Below, one piece after another: positions 22,671 through 59,177 of a DNA stretch of 64,000 bases (position 1 is the stretch's first letter; each line of letters starts with the position of its first letter). The stretch comes from Escherichia phage vB_EcoM_DE16: sequence record OP595145.1; one strand, given 5' to 3'. The notes beneath the pieces were generated by a model. It was not told the DNA's origin. It saw only the letters and a program-made list of their open reading frames with translations, and did no database searches. Both the position numbers and the translations under genes were made by a program.

Positions 22671-23076
22671 TACCCCTCCATTCAAGACAAGCCATAACTT
22701 TACGCCAATCACTTTCTGTAAGAAAAATCTCGTTTGCTTTCTTCCACAAATCTAAATCGTGAAGGGTTGGAATACGATATGTTAGTTCACAGAATCTATG
22801 CTCTTCTTCTGTAATATAACCAAAATGCAGAGCCACATCGTGAAACCAACACCAACCATGCATCTCTCGAACAACATGGTCATGTTGAGACATTATTTTA
22901 TGCCGTAAACCTAACCAACAAGGAACAGATACTTTAGTAGTCTTTAATCTGTGATCAACAGTATTAGAGTATTCAATAATAGCTGTCAGTTTCAATCGTG
23001 CTTTTTCTAAATCCTCATGGGTCACTTTGAAATAACTTTCTGAAAGATATCCACACATATTAATAACCTCCTTCAA
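22663..23076 (-). CDS. hypothetical protein (137 aa)
   Basis: ORF; weak R-x6-H pattern only. Confidence 0.5.
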   Translation of the reverse strand: MKEVINMCGYLSESYFKVTHEDLEKARLKLTAIIEYSNTVDHRLKTTKVSVPCWLGLRHKIMSQHDHVVREMHGWCWFHDVALHFGYITEEEHRFCELTYRIPTLHDLDLWKKANEIFLTESDWRKVMACLEWRGNE

Positions 23077-24001
23077 AAGGCTTAACTACATGTTGATTAG
23101 CTTTAAAACGTTCAACATAGTCGTTTTCGCCCATGTTTTCATATAGCTTAGTAACAACATAAAAGTTTTCCCAAGCATATTCCCTAAACCAACCACTAGT
23201 GATGGATGTGCAGACTTTAGATAAAGCCATTATAAAACTTTGCTTAGGGGTTGGACCTCCGATCTCTTCACCGAAAGGAATTTGTGAACGTTCCAAAGCC
23301 AAAACACACGCTTCTTCATAAACACCTAACAGGCGCACATGTTTTGGTTGAGCAAAAAACTTTTCTTTGCTGGTCATAACTTCACTTCCATCTTTCATAT
23401 AAGATTTATATGCTGGAGCATCCATTACCGCGATTGCTTCATGGATAGAATCATGATCATAAACATACGGAACCTCATCACCTTTAAAGAAGTCTTTACT
23501 TTTTACGTTTAAGTTCGGATGAGAGTAAGTGTATGTTTCTTTCTCACGCAACTCATAAATACTCTTAAGATTTTCTGGGATCTTTGCGCCCAGTGACCGC
23601 ATGAAATGAATATCTTTCATAGTTTTAAAGAAGTGAGGACTATCCTTTTTAAAACGATGACTCATTTTAAGAAGGTAGAGCACATCTAAAGGAGCAACAA
23701 CATGTCCAGCGTAAGTTCGACGAACATCATCAGAATCTTCACAATAACTAATCAAAGCTTCTGTGCTATCTCCTTGAGAAGCAATATCGTATTCCAAATG
23801 TGCACCAGCTATCATTTTGACGTGACCTTTGTTCCCTTTACGTTCTACAAGTTCAACAAACTCGTCTTGAGAGAACATTTTTGATAATTCTTCCCACTCT
23901 TGTTCTGTACACAGGTAATCTAAATCTACACAAGGGCGATACAAGTCTTTTCCCATGTCCATAGCATGAATTTGTAATGCACGGCTACCAATTAACACCA
24001 T
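23060..24001 (-). CDS. nucleotidyltransferase-fold protein (313 aa)
   Basis: N-terminal LIGSRA ... VDLDYL resembles minimal NTase GS ... DxD signature. Confidence 0.45.
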   Translation of the reverse strand: MVLIGSRALQIHAMDMGKDLYRPCVDLDYLCTEQEWEELSKMFSQDEFVELVERKGNKGHVKMIAGAHLEYDIASQGDSTEALISYCEDSDDVRRTYAGHVVAPLDVLYLLKMSHRFKKDSPHFFKTMKDIHFMRSLGAKIPENLKSIYELREKETYTYSHPNLNVKSKDFFKGDEVPYVYDHDSIHEAIAVMDAPAYKSYMKDGSEVMTSKEKFFAQPKHVRLLGVYEEACVLALERSQIPFGEEIGGPTPKQSFIMALSKVCTSITSGWFREYAWENFYVVTKLYENMGENDYVERFKANQHVVKPFEGGY

Positions 24002-24061
24002 AATATTTCTCCTCTATTGGTTGATAGGTTAAGTTTATCAAGCTTCCAGATTCCTGTCAAT

Positions 24062-24090
24062 AAAAAACCCGCCGAAGCGGGTTATTATTT
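24062..24090 (-). terminator. Rho-independent terminator (AACCCGC-UUCG-GCGGGUU + U run on minus strand)
   Basis: GC stem, tetraloop, flanking A/T runs. Confidence 0.65.
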
Positions 24091-24091
24091 A

Positions 24092-24364
24092 CTAACACAT
24101 TGAGGAAGAAGAGATCCAAACACCTCTTGTGGTTAAACCATTTTCATCCAACTCTACACCGTAATCTTCACAAATGAAATCAATATAGTGATCTGCGGCT
24201 GGCGTTCCTGTAGGGTAATAAGTTTCTCCGTTACCGTAGTCACCTATCCAAGCTTGTTCCTGAAACTGTTCACAAAGTTCTTCAATTTCCTTACGAAACT
24301 TTCTTTGTGCTTGTTCCATCTCTTTAACTTTCTTTTTTATCAGCAGTTCGCCTTCAGACTCCAC
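24092..24364 (-). CDS. small acidic protein ending VWISSSSMC (C-terminal motif family member)
   Basis: 90 aa ORF; C-terminal W-x-SSS-x-C shared with two neighbours. Confidence 0.55.
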   Translation of the reverse strand: MESEGELLIKKKVKEMEQAQRKFRKEIEELCEQFQEQAWIGDYGNGETYYPTGTPAADHYIDFICEDYGVELDENGLTTRGVWISSSSMC

Positions 24365-24373
24365 AATCTCTCC

Positions 24374-24592
24374 TTAACAGCTACTACTGTGCCAAACGCC
24401 TTGAGAATTAACGACGAAACCATCATCACCTTCACCATAACAAGAAGAGGATTGCCAATCTTCAAAACAGATTGCGTCATCTTCTAAACTAAGACCAAAA
24501 CCAGCATCTTCAGCTTCTTTTGTAAGTTCGTCCACTAAAGCCATAATAGCTTGGGCTTTTTCAGTTAATTCTTCAACATTACGATAACTCAT
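24374..24592 (-). CDS. small acidic protein ending VWHSSSC (family member)
   Basis: start set at internal Met overlapping upstream stop. Confidence 0.5.
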   Translation of the reverse strand: MSYRNVEELTEKAQAIMALVDELTKEAEDAGFGLSLEDDAICFEDWQSSSCYGEGDDGFVVNSQGVWHSSSC

Positions 24593-24867
24593 TAGTATTT
24601 CTCCTCTGGTTGGAAAACTGAACGACAAGCCCACATACTAGCTTCTTTTAAATGTTTAATAGCACAACGGATTTGGTCAATACGTTCGTATGCAATATCT
24701 AATTCTTTTTCTGTGCCGTCAAAAGACCCATGATATGCTTCACAATACTCTTCCTCTAAGGCTTTGAAGATTAAACCTAAACGCTCTTCTGCATCTTTAA
24801 TAGCGTTAACCTTGCCAATCTTATCGTCAGTATGCGCCTTATAACCTTTGATATCTTCGATTCCCAT
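24592..24867 (-). CDS. hypothetical protein (91 aa)
   Basis: ATG at 24867 preceded by AGGAGG on minus strand. Confidence 0.55.
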   Translation of the reverse strand: MGIEDIKGYKAHTDDKIGKVNAIKDAEERLGLIFKALEEEYCEAYHGSFDGTEKELDIAYERIDQIRCAIKHLKEASMWACRSVFQPEEKY

Positions 24868-24878
24868 TTTACCTCCTA

Positions 24879-25076
24879 TTAACAACTTAAAGAAGATGGA
24901 TGCCAATTTGTTCCAGTATTCTCATTTTCGTCTTCTGGATCATAATAACCACCCATCCCATATTCAGGGGAGAAACGGAAACCTTTACCAGTCTCATCTG
25001 CTAACTGCTCTGCTTCCGCTAAAGCCTCATAAGCTGCTTTTACGGCTTCTTCTACTGTTTTAAACTTGGTCGTCAT
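24879..25076 (-). CDS. small acidic protein ending NWHPSSLSC (family member)
   Basis: 65 aa ORF, third copy of C-terminal motif. Confidence 0.5.
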   Translation of the reverse strand: MTTKFKTVEEAVKAAYEALAEAEQLADETGKGFRFSPEYGMGGYYDPEDENENTGTNWHPSSLSC

Positions 25077-25350
25077 AAAATTTCTCCTCTCCTAAAGACA
25101 TGTTGACATGAAATGCACGATATGTAAATTCGTTGTCCGTTGTGTTTGAATAAAACTCAAATTGAACAACACCATCTTGAGAAGACAGATACATGCCAAT
25201 TTGAACTGTTCCTTCTGGTACCAGGTAAGCATACTCTGGACGTAGTGTTACATTGTAAAAATAAAGTTCCCCAACACCCATTTCATCCCAAGCTTCCCAA
25301 GCGGTAACGAAATTACTTTCAAAACTTGTTACTGATCCGAACTCTGCCAT
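25060..25350 (-). CDS. hypothetical protein (96 aa)
   Basis: ORF in co-directional block. Confidence 0.5.
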   Translation of the reverse strand: MAEFGSVTSFESNFVTAWEAWDEMGVGELYFYNVTLRPEYAYLVPEGTVQIGMYLSSQDGVVQFEFYSNTTDNEFTYRAFHVNMSLGEEKFYDDQV

Positions 25351-26419: not shown

Positions 26420-26728
26420 TCAACAAGTAATTTCAAAAGGTGTATAGGGTTCCGTATTTCTCATGATCCAAGGACTGCTAGGATTGCTCGGATCATAAGG
26501 ACCAAAAGGTTTTATGGTCGGTTGTGTTTCTTTCTTCTGAATCTCTTCAAAAATACGACGAAGTTCAGAATATTCTTGATCCACCATAAGATTCGGTGCA
26601 TCTGATTCTACAGCTTGCAGGTTATCTTCCTTAAGAACAATCTCACGAACAAGATTAACATCTTCTGTTTCTAAGATAACTTCTTTACGGATATTACCTA
26701 CACTTTGAATAATTGTAATCTTATACAT
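26420..26728 (-). CDS. hypothetical protein (102 aa)
   Basis: ORF in co-directional block. Confidence 0.5.
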   Translation of the reverse strand: MYKITIIQSVGNIRKEVILETEDVNLVREIVLKEDNLQAVESDAPNLMVDQEYSELRRIFEEIQKKETQPTIKPFGPYDPSNPSSPWIMRNTEPYTPFEITC

Positions 26729-27471
26729 TAATCCTCCTCAAGAGTTGAATAAAATTGAAGACCACCGTCCATATCGAAATAAGCAAATGTTAAGTTATTA
26801 TTGAACACAGATCCAGTATCCATATAAACACGATTCGCATTGATAATAGGTGTTTTTACATAAGAGTGTCCATGAAACACATAATCCACACCCATCACAA
26901 CAGGAAGTTTCATTCCCTCTTTAGCACAGTCTACCATATCTCTGTCCCACATAAGTGCTTCAGCAAAACGGTTTTCCTGTGTTTTTGTCATCTTCGAAAT
27001 GTATTCTGGAATATCTGTTACAGGGAGATATTCCAAAGAAGATGGATACCCACCATGAATAAACGCAAGTTTCATGCCTCTGTAGTTAACAATGAGAACA
27101 ACAGGTAAATCTTCTGTCATCATTGCTAAGGCTGTAGCTCCTTCTTCACCACATTCTTCAAAGACCGTATATCCTCCATTTTGATACCAACACTCGTAGT
27201 AGCTACGATCTCCTTCCAGCATACCTTTAATCATCATGTCTTCATGATTGCCACGAATAGCGTAGCGATTGTGTTTACGAGTAAATTCTAAAACACAACG
27301 AAAGTTTTGCTTTCCACGGTCAGTAAGATCTCCTAGAGATACAACCACATCTGTATCTCGGATACCTAACTTTGCCTTTCCTTTTTCATACAAATTATAA
27401 CAACCGTGTAGATCTCCAATTATAAAAAGATCTTGATCGCTTTTAACAGTAATTTCTCTGTGTATGATCAC
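26728..27471 (-). CDS. Ser/Thr protein phosphatase (calcineurin-like metallophosphoesterase)
   Basis: GDLHG, GDLTDRG and GNHE metal-binding motifs in order. Confidence 0.8.
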   Translation of the reverse strand: MIIHREITVKSDQDLFIIGDLHGCYNLYEKGKAKLGIRDTDVVVSLGDLTDRGKQNFRCVLEFTRKHNRYAIRGNHEDMMIKGMLEGDRSYYECWYQNGGYTVFEECGEEGATALAMMTEDLPVVLIVNYRGMKLAFIHGGYPSSLEYLPVTDIPEYISKMTKTQENRFAEALMWDRDMVDCAKEGMKLPVVMGVDYVFHGHSYVKTPIINANRVYMDTGSVFNNNLTFAYFDMDGGLQFYSTLEED

Positions 27472-57065: not shown

Positions 57066-57140
57066 GGCCCTGTAGCTCAATGGGAGAGCTGTCGGCTCAT
57101 AACCGATAGGTAGCTGGATCGAAACCAGCCAGGGCCACCA
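57066..57140 (+). tRNA. tRNA-Met/Ile2 (anticodon CAT)
   Basis: full cloverleaf: acceptor GGCCCTG/CAGGGCC, loop CTCATAA, encoded CCA; resembles lysidine-type Ile tRNA. Confidence 0.8.
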
Positions 57141-57142
57141 AC

Positions 57143-57217
57143 GTCTTTATGGTGTAATGGATAGCACAGGAGTCTTCTAAACTCTTAGTCAAGGTTCGAT
57201 TCCTTGTAAAGACACCA
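57143..57217 (+). tRNA. tRNA-Arg (anticodon TCT)
   Basis: acceptor GTCTTTA/TAAAGAC, anticodon loop CTTCTAA, T-loop TTCGATT, CCA. Confidence 0.8.
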
Positions 57218-57414
57218 GAATATTTTAACATGAATTAGCTCAAGTGATTTGAACCCCACTACTGATCATGGTGGCAGAGAATGAGGCAAGTATGTCAGAC
57301 ATTATAAACAAAGGCCACGGTTATATTAGAAGACATAGACGCTCGAAGAGCACCGTTCGTGGAGAACGGGGGTTGGTGGAGTCACCATTCATGGTAAAAT
57401 GTTTTAAAAAACTA

Positions 57415-57444
57415 TTGACAACAAACATTATTTTATGTTAGATT
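57415..57444 (+). promoter_or_regulatory. promoter AACTATTGACA-N18-TAGATT
   Basis: same conserved -35 context as 56826 and 58570. Confidence 0.45.
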
Positions 57445-57452
57445 ATAAGTAT

Positions 57453-57543
57453 GGAAGGGCAAATCGACGTGGCGACGAAAACGGTCTTGAAAACCGCCGA
57501 GCTTGAAAGAGCCTTGGGAGTTCGACTCTCCCTCCTTCCGCCA
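57453..57543 (+). tRNA. tRNA-Ser (anticodon TGA), type II
   Basis: acceptor GGAAGGG/TCCTTCC, loop CTTGAAA, long variable arm, T-loop TTCGACT, CCA. Confidence 0.7.
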
Positions 57544-57548
57544 GATTA

Positions 57549-57634
57549 GGTAGATTGGTGAAATGGTAGCCACAACAGTTTGCTAAACTGTAGTCGGAAA
57601 CGGCGTGTAGGTTCGAGTCCTACATCTACCGCCA
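57549..57634 (+). tRNA. tRNA-Ser (anticodon GCT), type II
   Basis: acceptor GGTAGAT/ATCTACC, loop TTGCTAA, long variable arm, CCA. Confidence 0.75.
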
Positions 57635-57764
57635 AGTTCTTTTTAATATAGCTTACTTTAATAGAGTAAACTTTCGGCAGATGGCCTCCACCATCTTACC
57701 GATACTTCATAGTTAGTGGTGCGAACACTGGCTATTTTAAAAAGAATTTAAATACTAGCATTTA

Positions 57765-57852
57765 GGTGAGTTAATTCCGTAGGGGTAGCGGGGCAGACTG
57801 TAAATCTGTTATCATTGCGATTCGGGTGGTTCGACTCCATCACTCACCACCA
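57765..57852 (+). tRNA. tRNA-Tyr (anticodon GTA), type II
   Basis: acceptor GGTGAGT/ACTCACC, anticodon arm GCAGA-CTGTAAA-TCTGT, CCA. Confidence 0.75.
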
Positions 57853-57858
57853 AATTAA

Positions 57859-57944
57859 GATGAGTTGGCTGAATGGTTTAAGCGGCGGACTGTTAATCCG
57901 TGTTCGAAAGAACGATATAGGTTCAAATCCTATACTCATCGCCA
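57859..57944 (+). tRNA. tRNA-Asn-like (anticodon GTT) with atypical 15-nt variable arm
   Basis: anticodon arm GCGGA-CTGTTAA-TCCGT matches Asn tRNAs, but GTTC-GAAA-GAAC hairpin inserted in variable region. Confidence 0.5.
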
Positions 57945-57951
57945 GAATTAT

Positions 57952-58028
57952 GGACTTGTAGAGTTAAGGTAAACCCCCAGTCGCCAAGAGGCTTCTGGAA
58001 TTGCAGGTATCGAATCCTGCCGAGTCCC
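57952..58028 (+). other. degenerate tRNA-like element
   Basis: 7-bp acceptor pairing and T-arm GCAGG ... CCTGC with 8-nt loop, but no canonical anticodon arm. Confidence 0.3.
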
Positions 58029-58034
58029 AGCTTT

Positions 58035-58109
58035 GCTCCTATAGTATAATGGCTATTACAACGGTTTTGTAATCCGTGGATCTCTGTTCGATTCAGAGTG
58101 GGAGCACCA
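58035..58109 (+). tRNA. tRNA-Thr (anticodon TGT)
   Basis: acceptor GCTCCTA/TGGGAGC, loop TTTGTAA, T-arm CTCTG-TTCGATT-CAGAG, CCA. Confidence 0.75.
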
Positions 58110-58569
58110 ACATAACAGGTAAGAACATTTAGGCTACTGAGAAATCATCCGAGGCAATCAGACCTATCTTCTGTTAAGTGTTCTTATCGTTGTGAAGAAA
58201 GCAAACTTATTGAATGTAAGCGGACGAAAGACATTCACTAACCTGTAGTAAGGTCGAGCCAAAGCGCGGTAATGAGTTCCGAGGTTAGTATTCACAACAC
58301 AACATTAAGAGCACTGTGATTGATCGTCGTATCCTGTGCACAAGGTCTGCTCGAAAGACAGTGTTCTTAGTATTGTGTTGATCACAAAAAGAGTTACCTG
58401 AAACTTGACCGGAGTAGGGTTGGATGGGGCAAAAGAAGAAGCGGCTCTCCCATCGACAGCAACGAAGAATAATATTTGACTTTGGTTTTGTATTATTTTA
58501 AGTTAGCTTACCGAACGTAGGGCTAGTCACCCAATGGGATACTCGTCACTGTCCCACTCAATAAAACTA

Positions 58570-58599
58570 TTGACAACCAATAGTAAAATGTAGTATAGT
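58570..58599 (+). promoter_or_regulatory. promoter AACTATTGACA-N18-TATAGT
   Basis: perfect -35 and 5/6 -10, just upstream of tRNA-Gly. Confidence 0.55.
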
Positions 58600-58610
58600 A
58601 AAGATGTAGG

Positions 58611-58684
58611 GCGTTCTTGGTGTAGCGGTAGCATTCCGTCCTTCCAAGTCGGCGGCACGAGTTCGATCCTCGTAGAACGCTCCA
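58611..58684 (+). tRNA. tRNA-Gly (anticodon TCC)
   Basis: acceptor GCGTTCT/AGAACGC, loop CTTCCAA, T-arm ACGAG-TTCGATC-CTCGT, CCA. Confidence 0.7.
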
Positions 58685-58782
58685 AATTATTTAATAAAGG
58701 GTTGCCAGAAAACTTTCTCTTTTACTCATGGTTTTCTCCTTCTCTCACACCTCTTCTGGTTGCCCTTCATTAAATGATTTAT

Positions 58783-58858
58783 TGGTTTGTAGTGTAGTCA
58801 GGTAGCACACGACACTTTGACTGTCGTAGGTTTGGTTCAAATCCAGACAGACCAGCCA
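58783..58858 (+). tRNA. tRNA-Gln (anticodon TTG)
   Basis: U1-A72 acceptor TGGTTTG/CAGACCA, anticodon arm CGACA-CTTTGAC-TGTCG, discriminator G, CCA. Confidence 0.8.
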
Positions 58859-58863
58859 TATAA

Positions 58864-58940
58864 CGGAATTTAGCTCAGTTTGGTAGAGTGTACGCTTTGG
58901 GAGCGTATTGTCGCAGGTTCGAATCCTGCAATTCCGACCA
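58864..58940 (+). tRNA. tRNA-Pro (anticodon TGG)
   Basis: acceptor CGGAATT/AATTCCG, anticodon arm TACGC-TTTGGGA-GCGTA, CCA. Confidence 0.8.
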
Positions 58941-58946
58941 ATTAAA

Positions 58947-59020
58947 TGTTTCGTAGTTCAATGGTAGAACCCACGACTGATAATCGTGAGACACAAGTTC
59001 GATTCTTGTCGAAACAACCA
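58947..59020 (+). tRNA. tRNA-Ile (anticodon GAT)
   Basis: acceptor TGTTTCG/CGAAACA, D-stem GTTC/GAAC, anticodon arm CACGA-CTGATAA-TCGTG, CCA. Confidence 0.75.
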
Positions 59021-59022
59021 GT

Positions 59023-59092
59023 TTCCCGTTAGACTTACAGGATAAGAGTTCCACAGCTTATTGTGATGCTGGTTCGAATCCAGCACGGGATA
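59023..59092 (+). other. degenerate tRNA-like element
   Basis: canonical T-arm GCTGG-TTCGAAT-CCAGC and acceptor pairing but no canonical anticodon arm; too short for full cloverleaf. Confidence 0.3.
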
Positions 59093-59098
59093 CCTAAT

Positions 59099-59177
59099 AG
59101 CGGGATAGAGGAGTCTGGTCGTCCTCGCCAGTTTCATATGCTGGAGATCATTGGTTCAAATCCAATTCCCGCCTCCA
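59099..59177 (+). tRNA. tRNA-Met (anticodon CAT), 1-72 mismatch
   Basis: D-stem GAGG/CCTC, anticodon arm CCAGT-TTCATAT-GCTGG, T-arm ATTGG-TTCAAAT-CCAAT, CCA; A1 opposite C72. Confidence 0.65.

Follow-up and report, generated by a model that had tools for sequence, protein, structure and literature searches.

A family of small acidic phage proteins with a conserved C-terminal tail, genetically linked to a predicted Pol-beta-fold nucleotidyltransferase

Why should three small proteins encoded side by side in a phage genome end in nearly the same residues? The question is raised by a stretch of 64,000 nucleotides (nt) from Escherichia phage vB_EcoM_DE16 (OP595145.1; here called the window), which is ~99% identical to Phapecoctavirus (Stephanstirmvirinae) phages of Escherichia coli such as ETEC-TG. 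A first-pass annotation made from the sequence alone had reported three minus-strand open reading frames (ORFs), here named A, B, and C, whose products end in WISSSSMC, WHSSSC, and WHPSSLSC, and this description was borne out. The analysis presented here points to an answer in which the three proteins are paralogs of a phage-restricted family that works together with an adjacent nucleotidyltransferase (NTase) of the MenT/AbiEii fold; we place the probability of this overall reading at about 0.5. The three ORFs, their motifs, and the NTase gene lie as follows (lengths in amino acids [aa]; HMM, hidden Markov model).

24879-25076, minus strand: ORF C, 65 aa, 'YGMGG' class; matches PHROG 899 at E 1.2e-12 and the family HMM at E 2.9e-23
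24951-24962, minus strand: YGMG of ORF C
24882-24905, minus strand: tail of ORF C, WHPSSLSC (protein end ...NWHPSSLSC)
24374-24592, minus strand: ORF B, 72 aa, divergent class; matches PHROG 899 at E 7e-6
24440-24457, minus strand: internal DWQSSSC of ORF B, directly before YGEG
24428-24439, minus strand: YGEG of ORF B
24377-24394, minus strand: shortened tail of ORF B, WHSSSC (protein end ...GVWHSSSC)
24092-24364, minus strand: ORF A, 90 aa, GTG start behind AAGGAG, long 'YG(N/S)GETYYP' class; matches PHROG 899 at E 5e-14
24227-24238, minus strand: YGNG of ORF A
24095-24118, minus strand: tail of ORF A, WISSSSMC (protein end ...GVWISSSSMC)
23060-24001, minus strand: predicted Pol-beta-fold NTase, 313 aa; Pfam DUF7277 and DUF7275; PHROG 2141

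Chance was excluded as the source of the shared ending by shuffling, which predicted 0.007 such ORFs per window where 3 were observed (300 shuffles; the window's 406 ORFs of at least 40 aa). In line with this, the pattern W.{0,3}SS.{0,3}C$ was found in 3 of the 1084 stop-to-stop ORFs of at least 30 aa in the window, namely, A, B, and C only. The products are acidic, as originally described, with isoelectric points (pI) of 4.05 to 4.40. Shine-Dalgarno sequences precede all three ORFs, the 91-aa gene situated between B and C, and the 313-aa gene, and in ~99%-identical phages the three ORFs are annotated as coding sequences for a 'hypothetical protein'. Comparison with a ~78%-related phage revealed purifying selection on each of them (pN, 0.10-0.16; pS, 0.62-0.86). 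Non-synonymous change lies far below synonymous change; ORFs A, B, and C are real, constrained genes.

Apart from their tails, the three proteins had been described as dissimilar. This holds for pairwise BLAST, in which the comparison of A with C is not significant (E 0.64), accounting for the original impression; it does not hold at the profile level, where all three are homologous. Each matches PHROG 899 with the E values listed above, and an alignment of the three spans their N-terminal helix, Y-G-x-G motif, and tail. These profile and alignment results show, at the level of sequence, that ORFs A, B, and C are long-diverged paralogs of common descent. An HMM of the family, built from alignment A3, detected ORF A (E 6.5e-6) as well as ORF C; ORF B went undetected by it and was recovered through PHROG 899 and its cluster of orthologs. 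Sought in other phages, the C-terminal pattern proved to belong to a large family with the same tail: an exhaustive HMMER search using a 20-sequence profile matched 477 clusters (50% identity) at E<=1e-3, nearly all of them to the last residue.

Residue statistics for the family were taken from the 149 listed representatives beyond the window's own cluster. Their architecture is uniform, consisting of a helix ('AE-x-IADE-x-G'), the segment 'F-x-F..(A)YGMGG(T)YYP', a linker rich in D and E, and the ending G-x-W-x-[S/A/P]-S-S-x-x-C, with a median length of 86 aa and a median pI of 4.5. The Trp stands at -7 from the Cys in 148/149, and the Ser residues at -4 and -3 and the Cys itself are present in 149/149. 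This Cys is the exact end of the protein in 145/149, and 89/149 have no other Cys. The tail W-x-[S/A/P]-S-S-x-x-C, with W at -7, is matched exactly by ORFs A and C. ORF B carries a variant, W-H-S-S-S-C, that is two residues shorter than the family norm and is likewise shortened in its orthologs (WYPSSC, WQPSSC); in T4-like phages, the orthologous class reads EDWLNSSCYGEE...IWYPSSC. Further paralog classes without YGMGG escape the HMM and keep the helix and the tail. In 20/145 members, where 1.1 would be expected, there is an extra W-x-S-S unit; its commonest position is exactly 7 residues before the terminal W, which gives tandem heptads such as W-D-S-S-Y-E-G-W-V-S-S-S-S-Q-C; the internal DWQSSSC of ORF B fits this pattern. 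Together, these statistics, the classes that lack YGMGG, and the repeated W-x-S-S mark the tail as the best-conserved part of the family and, probably, its functional tip. The earlier proposal of a shared C-terminal signal thus stands in part: the motif is functionally constrained, and it is not a portable signal attached to dissimilar proteins, since its bearers are paralogs of one family. Being the family's most conserved element, the tail may still serve as a site of recognition or modification.

In the AlphaFold model of ORF A (mean pLDDT, 94.3), a helix (residues 4-34) is followed by strands at 38-40, 47-50, and 82-85 and a turn at 86-89. Tail residues 81-90 have a mean pLDDT of 87 and comprise the strand at 82-85 and the helical turn at 86-89; in this prediction, the tail belongs to the fold. 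Scans of ORFs A, B, and C against Pfam, NCBIfam, and PADLOC gave nothing significant, a search of PDB sequences using the small-protein profile from alignment A2 yielded nothing beyond coiled-coil noise, and no domain fusions were found in the longer family members that were checked. The Dhakavirus vB_EcoM_ESCO10 (OM386655, locus L002) carries five tandem family members. Product names in this record appear shifted relative to the genes, with a 282-nt 'helicase' and a 294-nt 'inhibitor of prohead protease', and the latter label on the ESCO10 homolog was discarded for this reason.

The first-pass annotation had missed the context of these genes, namely, that the family is genomically coupled to the downstream NTase gene. 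When the neighbors of the family were clustered, all non-truncated loci seeded with the small proteins (37/37) proved to have a homolog of the 313-aa gene no more than 6 kb away and in the same orientation; two small-protein loci without such a homolog end at the array. Reciprocally, 77/78 viral loci seeded with the 313-aa protein carry one to six small genes with the motif, usually directly upstream. A member was found by HMM or strict motif in 69/78 of these NTase-seeded loci, nearly always just upstream, while 4/78 have members with divergent tails (WDSSTC, WVQSSC, WTPSGCSY) and in 4/78 the member lies at a distance of ~6 kb and in the opposite orientation. In loci L045-L047 and L055 (viral contigs of up to ~141 kb), the sole motif protein is 139-142 aa long, ends in ...YAWCSSSMEC, and is encoded ~6 kb off on the opposite strand. 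Because the member of this lineage lies on the opposite strand, linkage need not mean an operon. The strict motif was present in 196/3716 same-strand ORFs near the NTase gene versus 4/9098 elsewhere. The gap between the NTase gene and its nearest member had a lower quartile of <=60 nt and a median of 318 nt; in the window, the NTase gene starts 90 nt downstream of the end of ORF A. Across the sampled loci, the small proteins never occur without the large gene, and the large gene can stand alone. The linkage spans T4-like phages, Phapecoctavirus, ~100-kb Pseudomonas-type phages, and 350-390-kb jumbo phages, with differing surrounding genes. Collectively, these findings show that the gene linkage between the small proteins and the NTase is near-obligate across very different phages, and we consider a functional partnership between them likely.

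The 313-aa protein matches Pfam DUF7277 in its N-terminal part (E 8e-14) and DUF7275 (E 1e-75), falls in PHROG 2141 (unknown function), and has 2210 homologs at E<=1e-5. Its gene occurs in 734/50,697 phage records, a few of which annotate it as 'putative nucleotidyltransferase'; carriers include the T-even relatives RB69 and JS98, Phapecoctavirus, and jumbo phages. The AlphaFold model (pLDDT, 90.5) has the NTase fold of the Pol-beta superfamily, and its best structural matches are MenT1, MenT3, and MenT4. Residues G5, S6, D26, D28, and E70 are invariant in 30 homologs (51-81% identity), as are K112 and D130; catalytic roles were assigned to these residues by motif pattern (G-S...D-x-D plus a third carboxylate), not by residue-level superposition. 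As modeled, the 313-aa protein is a Pol-beta-fold NTase of the MenT/AbiEii/ANT structural group with its catalytic motifs intact. A PDB profile search with the NTase gave no match at E<=10, and inspection by eye showed that the MenT-style phospho-acceptor Ser/Thr two residues before D-x-D is not conserved in the phage NTases. A reading of the His-rich C-terminal half as an HD or HEPN domain, suggested by motifs only, was dropped because no search supported it.

How widely is this arrangement distributed? With ORF A alone as the query, tblastn returned 415 phage records, the majority from T4-like phages that infect enterobacteria and Aeromonas. The viral-contig loci lie on contigs of 60-120 kb, in T4-like genomes of ~170 kb, and in jumbo phages of 355-390 kb, and one to six copies per array are the rule. 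Orthologous groups corresponding to classes A, B, and C are found in Phapecoctavirus and again in T4-like phages, so the paralogs are old and have been retained together. A scan of 185,579 prokaryotic species (one genome each), with a narrow pattern covering the YGMGGTYY subclass only, yielded no relative, and the DNA of the module matched 0/5,426 complete E. coli genomes; the small-protein family is apparently phage-only. In T4-like phages, the module occupies a variable early region near tRNA genes and e/nudE. The syntenic region of T4 lacks both genes, and no motif ORF was found in the stretches of T4 scanned, namely, that region and 1-50 kb. T4 e.2 was considered as a positional homolog and rejected after translation.

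Along the minus strand of the window, from 25076 to 23060, the order is ORF C, the 91-aa gene, ORF B, ORF A, a hairpin, a promoter, and the 313-aa gene. The remaining features of this neighborhood, and a tRNA cluster elsewhere in the window, are the following.

24592-24867, minus strand: Acb2-type gene, 91 aa, between ORFs B and C; Pfam Acb2/Tad1 hairpin, E 1.3e-16; PHROG 717
24066-24083, minus strand: intrinsic-terminator-like hairpin, AACCCGCTTCGGCGGGTT then TTTTTATT, immediately past ORF A
24032-24060, minus strand: sigma-70-like promoter (TTGACA, 17 nt, TG-n-TAAACT) upstream of the NTase gene, a consensus match only
25060-25350, minus strand: 96-aa ORF, PHROG 4991 (function not known), immediately upstream of ORF C
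26420-26728, minus strand: 102-aa ORF, PHROG 15301, Cys-terminal (...PFEITC), without W-x-S-S
26728-27471, minus strand: calcineurin-like metallophosphoesterase (annotated as NinI-like Ser/Thr phosphatase)
57066-59177, plus strand: 10 tRNA genes (Met, Arg, Ser, Asn, Thr, Gly, Gln, Pro, Ile, Met), on the strand opposite to the module

The Acb2-type gene is unrelated to ORFs A, B, and C and belongs to an anti-CBASS sponge family; its stop codon has base 24592 in common with the ATG of ORF B, which it precedes. Because the array C, B, A is contiguous without Acb2 in the 78%-related phage (locus L041), Acb2 is taken to be an insertion, not a partner. In T4-like loci, Acb2 is found 5-7 kb downstream of the NTase gene. 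Phapecoctavirus-type loci, as well as the jumbo-phage loci L027 and L028, also have the PHROG 4991 ORF beside the module, and the Cys-terminal 102-aa ORF is probably unrelated to the small-protein family. Within 8 kb of the module, a calcineurin-like phosphoesterase is encoded in 27/119 loci, including the window and jumbo phages in which genes for T4-type RNA ligase 1 (Rnl1) and PNKP are adjacent as well. Rnl1 itself was found in 17/119 loci and PNKP in 16/119 within the same distance; the loci flanked by them are mostly from jumbo phages and some from Aeromonas phages, and neither was seen in the stretch of the window that was examined. The phosphoesterase, Rnl1, and PNKP neighbors suggest a theme of RNA-end healing.

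What might the two partners do together? MenT toxins add nucleotides to tRNA acceptor ends. By analogy, the small proteins and the NTase probably form a two-part phage module acting on tRNA/RNA ends, in which the NTase would extend RNA 3' ends by added nucleotides, tRNA acceptor ends being the most likely target. The most economical model makes the small proteins protein partners of this enzyme, with the invariant tail as the point of contact. For the small proteins, we tentatively propose a regulatory role, antitoxin-like or in the control of specificity, in which they plug the active site of the NTase. They would bind the enzyme as gates or specificity subunits, the acidic body mimicking nucleic acid and the conserved C-terminal tail docking in the catalytic cleft; there, the Trp would stack like a base, and the Ser hydroxyls and the terminal thiol/carboxylate would face the metal/NTP site. 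A more far-reaching version, which we regard as unlikely, is a new tRNA-end editing system directed against tRNA-targeting host immunity. Here, tRNA 3' ends would be remodeled or repaired during infection by a MenT-like NTase that may have a further catalytic domain, rich in His, and that would be controlled by the small acidic proteins, whose tail would mimic the tRNA acceptor end or would itself be nucleotidylylated.

Several observations weigh against a regulated MenT-like pair. By sequence, the NTase is not a DUF1814/AbiEii protein, as it matches Pfam DUF7277 and DUF7275 only and PADLOC gave no match at E<=10, and the small proteins show no similarity to the known antitoxins MenA1 and AbiEi. 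The number of paralogs, one to six per NTase with classes kept across genera, is atypical of 1:1 toxin-antitoxin pairs. One T4-like locus (L095) has the NTase without a small partner, as do the shorter NTase homologs of actinophages (Gordonia phage Bachita gp17 and Streptomyces phage BillNye); because the NTase is found without a partner in these phages, it does not strictly need neutralization. Between ORF A and the NTase gene of the window lie the terminator-like hairpin and the sigma-70-like promoter. Finally, the counts of linked loci (37/37 and 77/78) are not independent, since many loci come from T4-like genomes that are related to one another and a few contigs entered the sample twice.

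The same gene pairing could also arise if the small proteins were substrates of the NTase, with the tail modified at Ser-Ser (by O-nucleotidylylation or phosphorylation) or at the terminal Cys and the modified form being the active one. This is the closest surviving form of the first-pass idea of a processing signal; for processing or targeting as originally conceived, nothing points to secretion, packaging, or proteolytic processing. A substrate role would agree with the presence of one to six precursor-like genes per enzyme gene and with the finding that the small proteins never occur without the enzyme, which is sometimes alone. The Ser-Ser, Trp, and terminal Cys are invariant, and the tandem repetition of W-x-S-S beyond chance is as expected of a linear recognition or modification motif. 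Enzymes of the NTase fold are known to modify protein hydroxyls: MntA AMPylates HepT, and GlnD and GlnE modify Tyr. However, the model predicts an ordered tail that belongs to the fold, not a free peptide, and the targets of the closest structural relatives of the phage NTase are tRNA or small-molecule hydroxyls rather than proteins. We consider it improbable that the small proteins are substrates.

Other explanations would separate the small proteins from the enzyme altogether. They may be stand-alone proteins of anti-defense or host takeover, for example, inhibitors or decoys of host immunity whose targets could include host AbiEii/MenT-type toxins, with adjacency to the NTase gene reflecting a shared hyperplastic early region. 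Their small size, acidity, tandem duplication, and variable copy number would suit such a role, as would their site in the variable early region, close to the tRNA genes and e/nudE region of T4-like phages, and their absence from bacterial genomes in the scans made. The proximity of Acb2, which is inside the array in the window phage and 5-7 kb downstream in T4-like loci, speaks in the same direction, but its absence from the L041 array gives it the look of an insertion. Since the NTase linkage holds across unrelated genomic backgrounds, which a shared neighborhood alone does not explain, we judge a stand-alone role quite unlikely. The tail could instead be a targeting or degradation signal, for capsid packaging, export, or protease recognition, or the terminal cysteines could form a metal or redox site in an oligomer. 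The strictly C-terminal position of the tail, with a free carboxylate apparently required, and its single conserved Cys are compatible with these ideas. Yet neither a signal peptide nor a transmembrane segment nor a known degron can be recognized, the genes have an early-region look with no structural-gene context, and one Cys per chain cannot bind metal without oligomerization. As the NTase linkage would also be left unexplained, a targeting, degradation, or metal-binding role is very improbable.

Full-text literature searches returned no description of the family, the motif, or the NTase pairing and nothing on PHROG 899 or DUF7275, and searches on C-terminal-cysteine phage anti-defense and on anti-defense or Acb2 in Phapecoctavirus returned no relevant paper. 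Both partners are annotated as 'hypothetical' despite the 734 NTase-bearing phage genomes, among them therapeutic-type Phapecoctavirus, and recognition of the pair provides a concrete hypothesis for hundreds of orphan genes. It also carries the MenT/AbiE enzyme class beyond bacterial toxins into lytic phages, and the eight-residue tail offers a simple, mutable handle on how phages control an RNA-end-modifying enzyme in tRNA conflict. Were the tail modified, this would be new protein chemistry; were the module a tRNA-end editing system, it would involve a C-terminal protein motif and modification not described before.

In existing collections, the small proteins and the NTase are contained in PHROG 899, PHROG 2141, and Pfam DUF7277/DUF7275, all labeled 'unknown function', and the arrangement resembles several characterized systems in part. 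Like the precursor arrays of ribosomally synthesized and post-translationally modified peptides (RiPPs), the phage loci combine one enzyme gene with several small genes in tandem, whose products have a conserved helix at the N terminus and, at the C terminus, a conserved motif rich in Ser and Cys. In contrast to the hypervariable RiPP core, the phage tail is the most conserved part of the protein and is predicted to be folded, and no RiPP maturase family was found in Pfam/PHROG scans of the neighboring genes. The type VII pair MntA-HepT likewise combines an NTase-fold enzyme genetically with a small protein, and covalent modification of a hydroxyl would be chemically plausible for the phage pair as well. 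There, however, the NTase is the antitoxin and its partner is a HEPN RNase, whereas the phage small proteins have no HEPN or RNase features.

RlaP (PF10127) is a Pol-beta NTase of phages and bacteria that is encoded beside RNA ligase and polynucleotide kinase (PNK) genes and adds one or two nucleoside monophosphates (NMPs) to damaged RNA 3' ends (bioRxiv 10.64898/2025.12.29.696909; PMC7824862). In some loci, mostly of jumbo phages, the module of the small proteins adjoins Rnl1 and PNKP, neither of which was seen in the stretch of the window examined. It differs from RlaP in that the 313-aa protein has no PF10127 match in Pfam and in that small-protein partners are not mentioned for RlaP in the parts of these sources that were consulted (10.64898/2025.12.29.696909; PMC7824862).

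At the level of genes and models, the arrangement is closest to MenA1-MenT1 and AbiE, with a small, long-helix protein whose gene precedes that of a Pol-beta-fold NTase. MenA1, a 68-aa protein made up mostly of one long helix and specified by a gene upstream of that for MenT1, occludes the active sites of this enzyme; MenT3 carries a phosphate on a Ser in its active site, an instance of hydroxyl modification in an NTase-fold protein (PMC10435456). Unlike the MenAT/AbiE enzymes, the phage NTase lies outside DUF1814 by sequence and has a large extra His-rich helical domain (DUF7275). Its partner has another fold, with a beta-sheet and an invariant C-terminal motif, and one to six of its paralogs accompany each NTase; all occurrences of the module came from phage and viral sequences, and the scans of bacterial genomes produced none. 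Relative to MenAT/AbiE pairs, carriage by lytic phages, the new fold of the partner, its invariant C-terminal motif, and its multi-copy arrays are new.
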